DNA of 33,304 nt from a virus (lineage: Monodnaviria > Loebvirae > Hofneiviricota > Faserviricetes > Tubulavirales > Inoviridae): the IMG/VR virus record IMGVR_UViG_2778261316_000006; one strand, written 5' to 3'. The position numbers are program-made. Positions 15,001 to 18,000 of this stretch are shown piece after piece (the first letter of the stretch is position 1; each line of letters opens with the position of its first letter).

Positions 15001-18000
15001 CTGAGGAATGACGCCCTAATGCGCATAATGACGTTATGCTAAAGAGGCCGCTGCGGGATTCGATTTTCGCAGCGGCCTTTTCAACATAACGAGTCACACA
15101 TTATGCGCACCAATGGTAAGGATGGCAGAATCTGGCGGGAATCGTTGACACTGGCCGTCAACTGGCTACTATCGACAGTGATTCAAAATCATCCGTTTCT
15201 CCAAACGAATCAGAATCAAATGTCTGTCAGCAGTAAGTGAACGGCCTGACCTCACCAATCAGGCCTGTTCATCCAGTTAGTTGGTAAATCTGTACCTGAT
15301 ACACGAGAATCAAACACCACTTCTTCAGTGCCATCACCATGATGCCGGATAATCTGGTAACCGGATTGCGGGTTCTGGCTCTCAGCTTCATAAGCAGCCC
15401 GGAATGCTGGATCTTTGAGAAGCATCACTTTCAGCTCCTGATGTGTCATGAATTTTTCCATGATAAGCCCCGATGAATGCTGCCGCGCCGAATCAGCCAT
15501 AACGCTGAAAATGGAAACTGTACGGCTTGGCCAACCCCGGACAGCAACAAAACAAGTTTTGTCACTGACCGGCGTTATCTTTCAAAACAGACAGTTAACG
15601 ATTTTTTGTCTGGTGTTTATGCGTGAAATTTCGTACGTACGAAATTCACCACCAATAAACAAACGGACGATGACTGACCGGAAAAGCAATGCCGTCAGCA
15701 TCATGACCACGCATTACCTGATTGAGAAGCCTTCTGACTTCACGGCGCTCAGGCCTGGTCATCATCATATTGCGATACCAGGACGGCGATTTATCAAACC
15801 ATCTGGCACAACTGGCAAAATGTGAACCTACACGACGATAAGACTTAAGGCGGCCACCGGGAAGTCGGTCACGCGCCTTATTTTTTACAGACATAATAAA
15901 TCCTCTAAGTAACTGAATACCTAGAAGATGTCGTACTGTTCATACCCCATAAAAGTTAACGCCATAATAAAAATCCATACAATCAGTTCAGGTTGTCCCG
16001 GAACAGTTCACCGCTCCTCGCGGCGCTGCGGGGCGTCGCCCTGCTCCGGTCAACCTTTCTGACCTGAAGCATCACCATAATATCAGTCTTGTTGCTTTCA
16101 CTGGTACGGGAACCGAAGAAGCTCCAGCCGGAACTGGCCTTACTGTCTTTCTGTTCAGCAAGGCCACCAAGTAAAATAATATCACCATCTGCAAGGCTGA
16201 CTTCGGTTGTTACATCACGCTTGATAAGGGTTGGCGAGTTATTGACGCCGGTTTCAGTGGTCACAAAGTTGGAAAGCTGCTGCTGAATCTTGAGATCCAT
16301 TGTCCGACTTTTGATTGATGGCGTTACGTTAAACAAAACACCGCTGGAACGATATTCAACGGATTGCGTGGTCGTATTGTTATTCACCGTAACACTGCCC
16401 AGTACTGGCACATCAGAGCCGACTGAAAAAGACGCTGAGGCATTATTTTTTACCCGCAGTCGTGGCGCACTGACAACAGTAAAACGACTGTCGGTTTTAA
16501 GCAGATTGAAAATGGCATCAATGGAGCCGGTTCGAATATTGATAAAATTATCCAGTCCGGCAGCACCAACTGAAATATTGAATTTATCAGACAGAATTTT
16601 AGCCGCTAAAAGAATGCCGGAGCCGTCAGACTGCGAGGTCTGAACCTCAAAAACATAACCAGAAACAACCACTTCATCACTCATCGTATCCAGCGAAGTG
16701 ACCAGTGTTTTCAGGATGGCGATATCCTCTTTCGTACCATAATAAACCAGAATATCACCGGTTCGATTGATGTAGTTGCTTGCCCCTGATGAACCTTTTA
16801 GCGAATCGTCAGAAATCACGGCTCCACTGTTATTGAAGGAGCCTGAAACGTAGCCGCCAAGAATATCAGACAGGTAGGCAACAGAACGGTACTGAGGCGT
16901 ATAAGTCCATGTATAACGTGGCTTAACCGGCTCTTTCGGCGTATAGGGCGCGATAAAATCAACACCCTTTTTCGTCCATATTCGAATGTTCATATTGCCA
17001 AGATAACGGGTTACAAATTCCCGTTCATCAATATCAGGTGTTAACCTGAATGTAATCATTCGTTCATCATTAACAAGCTGTGGATCTAGCATATACGGGA
17101 CTTTAAGCACCTCACTATAAATAAGAGAAATAGCCTCCGGTAGCTTGACTTTATTTAATTCAAGCTCTGACCCTGCGAAAGCACATGAAGAAAATAGTAG
17201 CGTTAATGCGAGTAAAATCTTTTTCATTATTTTTTCCCCGTATAAAGCGTCACACGCTCACCATCAATAATTCCGCTCATCAACATCCCTTTGTAATTAA
17301 AACTGGATGCAGGAACGGCACGCAAAACACCGGCACCGTTAACAAGAATCACAAACGCCCTGCCTTCACTGGTCATTCTCCCTGATATACGCCACTCGGT
17401 TGAAAGTGGCGGTTCAGCTGGTTCTGAGGGAGTATCTGGTGCTGGAGTAGCAGCGGAAGAACGAAACATGGCCGCATCACGTACATCTGTTGTAGCCAAA
17501 TCTGGCGAGGGATCGCTTCGGCCAAACGTGCTGAAAAATGAGTAAATCAGCCAGCCTGACCCGATAAACATCAATGGAAAAAGCACAAGAAAGAACCTGA
17601 CTTTGCCAGAATTCCAGATGCTCTGGCGTTTATCTGTCTGCTTTTCATTACCGTTATTTCCTTCATAGCTTTTATAAAGTTCAAAAATATCAGGGTTATA
17701 TTTATTGCGATAACTGGTGACGAGGTTGCTTTTATAGATTTTGTGGCCTGAATATACGTCAATGCAGTAATGATTATTCAGGCCCAACGCTTTCAGCTTG
17801 CGCATCCGGTAAGTTGTTTCTATTTTGTCTTTCAGAAAGCGAGCAATATTAGAAAGTGACTGATTTACAATAACCAAATCACAGCTAATACCCGTTTCAG
17901 GGTGCGTAAAATGACGATGTTCAGCAATAAATGATTTCTTCTCAGCCGTCATATCCTTATCGCTACCGAAGATTCTCCATGCTTCATCAATAACAATTAA

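Follow-up and report, generated by a model that had tools for sequence, protein, structure and literature searches.

Two different filamentous prophages in one dif-site array of an Escherichia coli-like chromosome, probably joined by XerC strand exchange

The DNA analyzed here, the window, is the whole 33,304-nucleotide (nt) stretch of the inovirus record IMGVR_UViG_2778261316_000006 of IMG/VR. k-mer self-comparison revealed that it was filled by two head-to-tail tandem repeats, A-A with a unit of 7,698 bp followed by B-B with a unit of 9,145 bp. At an offset of 7698, the two A copies were 100% identical over 1..7414, and the first mismatch was at 7415/15113. At an offset of 9145, the two B copies were identical over 15019..24159 save for six mismatches, with zero mismatches from 15098 on. 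It is highly probable that two filamentous prophages of the CTX-phi type, both lacking an integrase, form an array at the dif site of an E. coli-like chromosome, in which XerC exchanged strands at 15100|15101 and B integrated first, followed by A. The prophage units are as follows (ORF, open reading frame; attP, phage attachment site).

1..7402, minus strand: prophage A copy 1 (A1), partial, the window opening inside it at the end of the secretin gene; 100% identical to 7699..15100, with genes matching those of A2.
7403..15100, minus strand: prophage A copy 2 (A2), starting with the XerC arm brought by the phage (7403-7413) and ending with the central region (15095-15100); its bounds are the predicted XerC exchange points.
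15101..24245, minus strand: prophage B copy 1 (B1), YpfPhi/CUS-1 family, from ORFs, Pfam and identity to relatives.
24246..33304, minus strand: prophage B copy 2 (B2), partial, the window stopping just short of its own attP module; 100% identical to B1.

Neighboring units meet at similar junction modules. The elements of the A2/B1 module and its two homotypic counterparts are listed below.

7320..7414, minus strand: A1/A2 junction module, with both halves of the folded attP, the central region CACACA (A-type) and the XerC arm, from alignment.
24163..24257, minus strand: B1/B2 junction module, with the outer arm GGTTCGCACAA, an A at 24205 in the loop and the central region CGTACA, from alignment; predicted fold of -31.2 kcal/mol, z = -7.7.
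15018..15028, plus strand: outer half-site AATGCGCATAA, with A-type markers at 15019, 15021 and 15026; predicted to pair with the XerC arm as its 3' partner on the viral (minus) strand.
15034..15089, minus strand: XerD-like arm pair, TTATGCTAAAG (15034-15044) and TTTCAACATAA (15079-15089), flanking the GC-rich stem and loop.
15045-15055 and 15068-15078, minus strand: GC-rich stem, with the loop at 15056-15067 carrying the A-type marker T at 15060.
15090..15100, minus strand: unpaired central region TGTGTGACTCG, 11 nt, from the fold; the 6 nt beside the arm are CACACA on the plus strand (A-type).
15101..15111, minus strand: XerC-binding arm GGTGCGCATAA, the same sequence as the corresponding arm of E. 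coli dif; cleavage and exchange predicted between 15101 and 15100.
15098..15112, no strand: crossover interval ACATTATGCGCACCA, 15 nt, present in all three modules (A/A, A/B and B/B); the markers of A stop at 15097 and B-specific sequence begins at 15113.

In a three-way alignment, the A2/B1 module matched the A1/A2 module (7320-7414) at 95 of 95 positions, through ...CACACATTATGCGCACCA at 15112. From 15113 on, the B sequence ATGGTAAGG... was found in place of GTGCGCAGATAAGCC... of A. The A2/B1 and B/B modules differed at six positions: 15019, 15021 and 15026 (AATGCGCATAA vs GGTTCGCACAA), 15060 (T/A in the loop) and 15096-15097 in the central region. The 6 nt of the central region are CACACA in A, CGTACA in B and TATACA in dif (PMC2731167), and the final A-specific bases are 15096-15097. 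Since all six markers were A-type up to 15097 and the sequence was B from 15113, the switch lies inside 15098-15112. This interval holds the XerC arm (15101-15111) plus the predicted cut at 15100|15101, XerC being reported to cleave between its arm and the central region (PMC4246890). The exact arm GGTGCGCATAA was present just three times in the window, all on the minus strand (7403, 15101 and 24246) and each time at a unit boundary, and about 0.016 occurrences of this 11-mer would be expected by chance according to our own arithmetic.

A preliminary description, made from the sequence of the window, had regarded everything through the arm as A-type. This was right for the module as a whole but not for the arm itself, which is identical in A, B and dif. 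Its other readings were borne out: pure B sequence starts right after, from 15113; the B1/B2 junction is B-type in its loop (GGATACG) and central region as well as, in the alignment, its outer arm; and aligning the three modules, as had been suggested, placed the crossover in an interval that includes the dif-like arm.

The position of the switch bears on whether the joint is a product of RecA-dependent homologous recombination, with the ~91-bp modules of A and B as partners, for instance between a replicative form of A and a resident B module. The modules are 95.6% identical over 91 bp, and homologous recombination has been suggested for the insertion of YpfPhi between copies (PMC4266046). 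However, all six markers were A-type and the switch fell in the last 15 nt, which is too short for efficient RecA exchange, while longer identical runs of 33-35 nt were left unused. Moreover, a B/B module as the target would put A between B copies, whereas the array is dif-A-A-B-B with the dif central region left of A. Such a route is therefore considered very unlikely.

Evidence for dif came from the flanks. The window was 100% identical to contig NMEQ01000013.1 (GCA_002542525.1), which was reached by an exact match of the 620-amino-acid (aa) protein of A and whose coordinates equal those of the window + 17474. A second assembly, AATQIH010000025.1 (GCA_013063145.1), contained a single A copy and then B, with an A/B joint identical to that of the window. 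In both, an intact 28-bp dif, ATTTAACATAATATACATTATGCGCACC, abuts the first A copy on the left. The order left of A1 is ...ATTTAACATAA-TATACA-TTATGCGCACC-A|GTGCGCAGATAAGCC..., in which the XerC arm of dif runs directly into A. The DNA left of dif was 100% identical to several E. coli chromosomes, and the host is therefore very probably E. coli.

These contigs also bear on whether the joint is an assembly chimera at a shared repeat, the two phages being truly separate, one of them episomal for example. Contiguity from A to B is known from assemblies, and identical tandem copies assemble poorly. In addition, no A|B or B|A joint was found in either of two large searches. Among 5,426 complete E. 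coli genomes, no match covered >=80% of the query for A/UPphi-right|B-left, B-right|UPphi-left or B-right|A-left joints, the latter two queries being synthetic joints. A metagenome scan for four joint types returned 13 joints, of which 0 were A|B or B|A. Among species-representative genomes, the search for X|B joints found only the homotypic YpfPhi joint of Yersinia pestis. On the other side, two assemblies with different copy numbers of A share the identical joint, which has precisely the structure that Xer recombination predicts, and the left boundary is a regenerated dif with the A-side flank. The overlap of 15 nt is also below the usual assembly k-mers, and the longer shared runs upstream, of 33-35 nt, keep their A-type markers. 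The expectation in the preliminary description that a mis-assembly would not land there was thus reasonable, and a chimera has, in our estimate, only a very small probability.

The minus strand of the window, which we take to be the packaged (+) strand from gene orientation and general knowledge of inoviruses, has the order 5'-T GGTGCGCATAA | TGTGTGACTCG | TTATGTTGAAA AGGCCGCTGCG-loop-CGCAGCGGCCT CTTTAGCATAA | CGTCA | TTATGCGCATT-3'. The computed DNA fold of this strand of the A-type module had an energy of -31 kcal/mol and z = -6.8, and 0 of 200 shuffles folded as well. In the computed fold of the B module as well, which also outdid all 200 shuffles, duplexes of the XerC arm and of the XerD-like arm surround an 11/5-nt bulge in a long stem, a layout known from the attP(+) of CTX-phi. 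The stem was kept in 6 related modules, with one compensatory pair. The central regions begin with TGT, similar to that of dif (TGTATA).

The same module was also considered as a duplex site, in which case the joint would be a XerCD product of the double-stranded replicative form, as for VGJ-phi, and not of a folded single strand. A XerC-first exchange at duplex GGTGCGCATAA-TGTGTG... would leave exactly the same joints. Canonical Xer sites of the dif type have a spacer of 6-8 nt. In the duplex form, the spacers between the half-sites are 11 nt (GGTGCGCATAA-TGTGTGACTCG-TTATGTTGAAA) and 5 nt (AATGCGCATAA-TGACG-TTATGCTAAAG), so that the canonical central region of a VGJ-type duplex attP was not found. 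Also against a duplex substrate, the inverted pair with its long GC stem is conserved and folds far better than the shuffles, and two close relatives, YpfPhi and CUS-1, have been placed among the CTX-type phages (PMC4246890). We consider a VGJ-phi-type integration unlikely.

Integration of a folded single strand by XerC would proceed as follows. Each phage carries two inverted dif-like half-sites, and its packaged (+) strand would fold into a forked hairpin that presents the XerC arm GGTGCGCATAA, the XerD-like arm and an unpaired central region. Host XerC would cut after the arm both in the hairpin and in the chromosomal dif, and one strand pair would be swapped. Replication would then turn the junction into a prophage. 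On one side of the product, the phage central region and hairpin would stand beside the host XerC arm. On the other side, the phage XerC arm would be fused to the dif central region and XerD arm, and a functional dif would thereby form anew. The predicted order is dif(XerD arm + TATACA) + phage XerC arm + body + hairpin + phage central region | resident XerC arm. The next phage would enter the regenerated dif at the left end, and stacking would occur there. On the plus strand, an internal joint should read [later phage body - hairpin - central region] | [XerC arm - earlier phage body]. The A2/B1 joint, [A body - A hairpin - CACACA] | [TTATGCGCACC - B body], corresponds to the product expected of A entering the dif regenerated by B, for which the model gives ...CGAGTCACACA|TTATGCGCACCAATGG.... 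Under the model, the arm would be inherited from the resident B/dif side, and the array order suggests that B integrated first and A afterwards. XerC catalysis, a single-stranded substrate, resolution by replication and the order of events are the parts of this scheme that we infer from the sequence.

Identical tandem copies would further permit new single-stranded genomes to be made via rolling-circle replication, the hairpin site being masked in the duplex prophage. This precondition was seen in the window for A and B alike, each occurring twice in tandem with the two copies identical. Successive integrations give rise to CTX-type arrays, whose tandem copies are needed for virion production as attP is masked in the duplex (PMC3442271). 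For YpfPhi, inverted XerC/XerD sites, regeneration of an intact dif and arrays of two to four copies were reported, and XerC-dependent CTX-like integration was proposed (PMC4266046).

The predicted joints were compared with those of other loci. A junction table was made of every occurrence of the XerC arm in the fetched loci L001-L028 and the window, plus L029 and L030. The left ends (22 of 22) consisted of the dif central region TATACA followed by TTATGCGCACC and the phage body. All internal joints, including the three of the window, consisted of hairpin, central region and arm, of which the hairpin and central region belong to the left-hand phage. Their central region was CACACA after right ends of the A/UPphi type and CGTACA after those of the B type, and the loop, where variable, also followed the left phage. 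For instance, the B-type array of E. coli NU14 is bounded on its left by a full dif and on its right by hairpin, CGTACA, arm and hipA-side host DNA. The dif locus beside hipA is occupied likewise in E. coli NU14, G5, NCTC9040 and ECONIH2. The heterotypic triple of ECONIH2 also follows the rule: at joint 2|3 the loop GGATACGA is of the copy 2 type, and the module of copy 3 itself has a different loop, GGATTCTA. Nine right ends had the arm variants TTATGCGCACT or TTATGCGCATC (..CACT, ..CATC), and none of these was found at left ends or internal joints. As the variants are confined to right ends, the right-end arm is host DNA and the left-end arm is phage DNA. Natural exchanges fall between central position 3 and arm position 10, about 12 nt centered on the XerC cut; this mapping uses the right-end arm variants and the central differences between dif and phage, and its resolution is coarser than a single nucleotide.

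The anatomy of the sequence, the interval that holds the crossover, the regenerated dif and the constancy of the rule over many genomes were read directly. The preliminary description had interpreted a swap at the edge of the shared arm as the outcome of XerC-mediated sequential integrations. The 15-nt interval, the dif on the left, the junction rule and the membership of B in a phage group listed as CTX-type (PMC4246890, PMC4266046) support this interpretation, with the amendment that the real joint would lie at the inner edge of the arm, 15100|15101, and not at the outer one.

Two further observations were made while loci were compared. The T/A marker of the loop (15060/24205) is not phage-specific in general, as B-type modules of NU14 (L001 12039 and 21625) carry the T that is A-type in the window; across loci, the phage type was tracked only by the central region (CACACA vs CGTACA) and the outer half-site. 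Locus L004 was considered as a small element stacked on A and rejected, the region being a scaffold gap of Ns and an insertion sequence (IS) end.

Several points weigh against integration of A, as a folded single strand, into the dif regenerated by B. The contiguity from A to B rests on two assemblies that are 100% identical across 14.7 kb, and for this reason NMEQ01000013.1 and AATQIH010000025.1 probably share one lineage and document a single integration event. The array of the source contig is known without its right end. Within the window, the arm is alike in A, B and dif, so the joint is resolvable to no finer than 15 nt. Single- and double-stranded substrates are indistinguishable from the sequence, and the support of the hairpin by covariation is thin, with its one compensatory pair. 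Finally, in the laboratory, superinfecting YpfPhi was reported to insert preferentially between resident copies and not into the regenerated dif (PMC4266046), which means that the classical stacking rule is not absolute in the YpfPhi family.

The genes of A and B were identified from ORFs and Pfam. Pfam assignments of A genes were taken from identical proteins in L026 and L027, and identical proteins were likewise used for B. The genes are as follows, and the majority are on the minus strand.

7699-8961, minus strand: A2 secretin, ORF and Pfam.
8958-9992, minus strand: A2 Zot, ORF and Pfam.
9996-10283, minus strand: A2 DUF2523, ORF and Pfam.
10294-12156, minus strand: A2 adsorption-like protein of 620 aa, ORF.
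12242-13079, minus strand: A2 proteins of 82, 89 and 96 aa, ORF.
13096-14286, minus strand: A2 Rep (G2P_X_C), ORF and Pfam.
14311-14547 and 14745-15011 (88 aa), plus strand: A2 small ORFs.
15983-17227, minus strand: B1 secretin, ORF and Pfam.
17227-18252, minus strand: B1 Zot, ORF and Pfam.
18256-18543, minus strand: B1 DUF2523, ORF and Pfam.
18556-20268, minus strand: B1 protein of 570 aa, ORF.
Minus strand: B1 proteins of 77 and 83 aa, ORF.
20855-21172, minus strand: B1 G5P, ORF and Pfam.
21184-22236, minus strand: B1 Rep (Phage_CRI and G2P_X_C), ORF and Pfam.
22408-22854, plus strand: B1 repressor-like protein with a helix-turn-helix (HTH) domain, ORF and Pfam.
22954-24159, plus strand: B1 cassette of 140-, 91- and 159-aa proteins, ORF.

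A and B each possess a filamentous-phage set: Rep, a small DNA-binding protein, coat-like small proteins, a long adsorption-type protein, DUF2523, Zot and secretin. In both gene sets, short divergent ORFs adjoin the repeat boundary. No integrase domain was found in the called genes of A and B, whose Pfam matches were only Secretin, Zot, DUF2523, G2P_X_C, Phage_CRI, G5P and HTH, with the small ORFs lacking hits as a formal caveat. The start sites of Rep and the adsorption protein of A are uncertain. The Rep ORF (13096-14286, minus strand) has 396 aa from its first ATG; most assemblies give it 371 aa, and the Logan contig L028 gives it 396 aa. The ORF of the adsorption protein begins with a GTG, 7 codons before the start of the 620-aa gene as called.

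At the DNA level, A and B had in common the ~91-bp module and otherwise just patches of 65-69% identity in the Zot and secretin genes. The identities between their morphogenesis proteins were 30-62%. A and B are therefore two different phages. By sequence, B belongs to the YpfPhi/CUS-1 phages: the tandem prophage beside hipA in E. coli NU14 matched it at 99.9% over 8,265 nt, and YpfPhi of Y. pestis (NCTC5923, L024) matched it at 99.3-99.6%. The array of CP074261.1 was B-only by BLAST. The A unit was 99.95-99.97% identical to prophages in other Enterobacteriaceae assemblies and 94% identical to tandem prophages of E. coli G5 and NCTC9040. In CM130296.1 (L005-L007, ~2298284-2344472), six tandem A copies span 46,188 bp (6.0 x 7,698) from a regenerated dif to the right junction, where the right-hand arm is the variant TTATGCGCACT. 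DNA and Pfam comparison did not find the UPphi901 core set (Lineavirus-like g3p, g6p, g1p and g4p) in A, which has DUF2523 and neither DUF5455 nor Phage_Coat_A. In a phage database search, the sole match of A was If1, at 76% over 15% of the unit, and B had no match; neither phage is recorded there. A is apparently undescribed.

Cassettes next to attP were near-identical on dissimilar backbones. By megablast, the terminal 540 nt of A (88-aa ORF and attP; 14573-15112) was the only part of A that matched the UPphi-like prophage of L010 (9829-10367), at 99.6%. The end of B, of about 0.9-1.4 kb with the 91/159-aa cassette beside attP, differed from NU14. Its final ~1.4 kb, with the 140/91/159-aa ORFs and attP, matched the ECONIH2 prophage at 99.5% (22854-24257 vs L030 18998-20399), and the core of B was 99.9% CUS-1-like. 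Heterotypic dif arrays might be a place where enterobacterial inoviruses swap attP-proximal cassettes, an idea we put forward as tentative and rather doubtful. Rolling-circle read-through over a joint would package the core of one phage with the central region, hairpin and accessory genes of its neighbor, and the cassette mosaic of A and B is the pattern expected of hybrid genomes made across array joints. If this is true, the A/B joint is a caught intermediate of modular evolution. The A/B pair may not be productive as a hybrid, their Rep proteins differing. The concept of hybrid, modular phages was reportedly established for CTX-phi by Davis and Waldor in 2000.

Other mobile elements were also found at the dif loci. 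ISKpn21-like elements of the IS1202 family, with a duplication of 5 bp (AATGG or AATAT), immediately follow the XerC arm of dif-type joints in E. coli EH09-18-41 (L029 13121-17686), G5 (L002 ~29338-31600) and NCTC9040 (L003 29345-32104). In EH09-18-41, two tandem copies are present in the left end of a B-type prophage. As a passenger gene, the units of EH09-18-41 and G5 carry DUF6904, and those of NCTC9040 carry a gene for a Shedu nuclease. That the IS1202 family targets dif/pdif has already been published (PMC10132070). The IS-bounded segment of NCTC9040 also contains a remnant attP-like hairpin (L003 31975-32050) without central region or XerC arm, whose stem has a compensatory C-G to A-T change relative to the A and B modules. 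Moreover, dif borders on its XerD side on an element rich in recombinases, which in the source contig lies before window position 1 (L026 14906-21600) and which was also seen at L002 10892-13826 and L023 15277-21600. In the source contig it consists of 507-, 556-, 845- and 167-aa genes and a divergent HTH gene. Two of these genes carry an integrase annotation in identical copies from E. coli, and 52 complete E. coli genomes contain the element at >=80% coverage.

The novelty of the array is modest: the mechanism, of the CTX-phi type, is known, and what is new is the physical joining of two different enterobacterial inoviruses, with an arrival order readable from the joint. If the proposed mechanism holds, the window provides a clear case from nature, outside Vibrio, of one dif site occupied by two different Xer-dependent filamentous phages, and its internal joint records the arrival order (B, then A) as well as the exchange point. 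It would support the CTX-phi scheme for the YpfPhi/CUS-1/UPphi group of Enterobacteriaceae. It would also indicate that a second, superinfecting phage can enter the regenerated dif, in contrast with the reported laboratory preference of YpfPhi for sites between copies. In addition, the ownership rule for hairpin and central region vs arm helps to delimit and count prophages in dif arrays, which are often mishandled by assemblers and annotators.

Similar to YpfPhi of Y. pestis and CUS-1 of E. coli O18:K1:H7, B has the same attP module, dif integration and tandem copies. Different from the published YpfPhi arrays, which are homotypic, B here neighbors a different phage. UPphi901 and the UPphi viruses (Shapiro and Putonti, 2020; PMC7307601) are likewise dif-integrated tandem inoviruses of Enterobacterales, whereas at the DNA level the morphogenesis genes of A (DUF2523, Zot, secretin and the 620-aa protein) do not resemble those of UPphi; their proteins are 47-57% identical to those of B. 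Heterogeneous tandem copies (ECONIH2) and possible hybridization were discussed in that study, and one co-infection by UPphi and YpfPhi was described, not on one contig (PMC7307601). The integrative mobile elements exploiting Xer (IMEXs) of the VGJ-phi and TLC-phi types likewise use XerCD and dif and can form mixed arrays with CTX-phi. However, VGJ-phi has a duplex attP with a canonical spacer, TLC-phi recombines XerD-first and both are excisable, whereas A and B have 11/5-nt spacers and a hairpin pair. Compared with CTX-phi and RS1 at dif1 of Vibrio cholerae (Val et al., 2005; Das, 2014, PMC4246890; Bischerour, 2012, PMC3442271), A and B differ in their enterobacterial host with E. coli dif, the 11/5-nt bulge, phages unrelated in sequence and the lack of a recognized toxin cargo. 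Their likeness to CTX-phi, which is read from sequence and computed fold only, lies in the absence of an integrase and in the inverted dif-like half-sites with a predicted (+) strand hairpin and unpaired center. It extends to a predicted exchange at the boundary of XerC arm and central region and to the regeneration of dif on one side, where later elements would stack. Finally, similar to CTX-phi, whose tandem copies are needed for phage production, A and B form tandem and heterotypic arrays.

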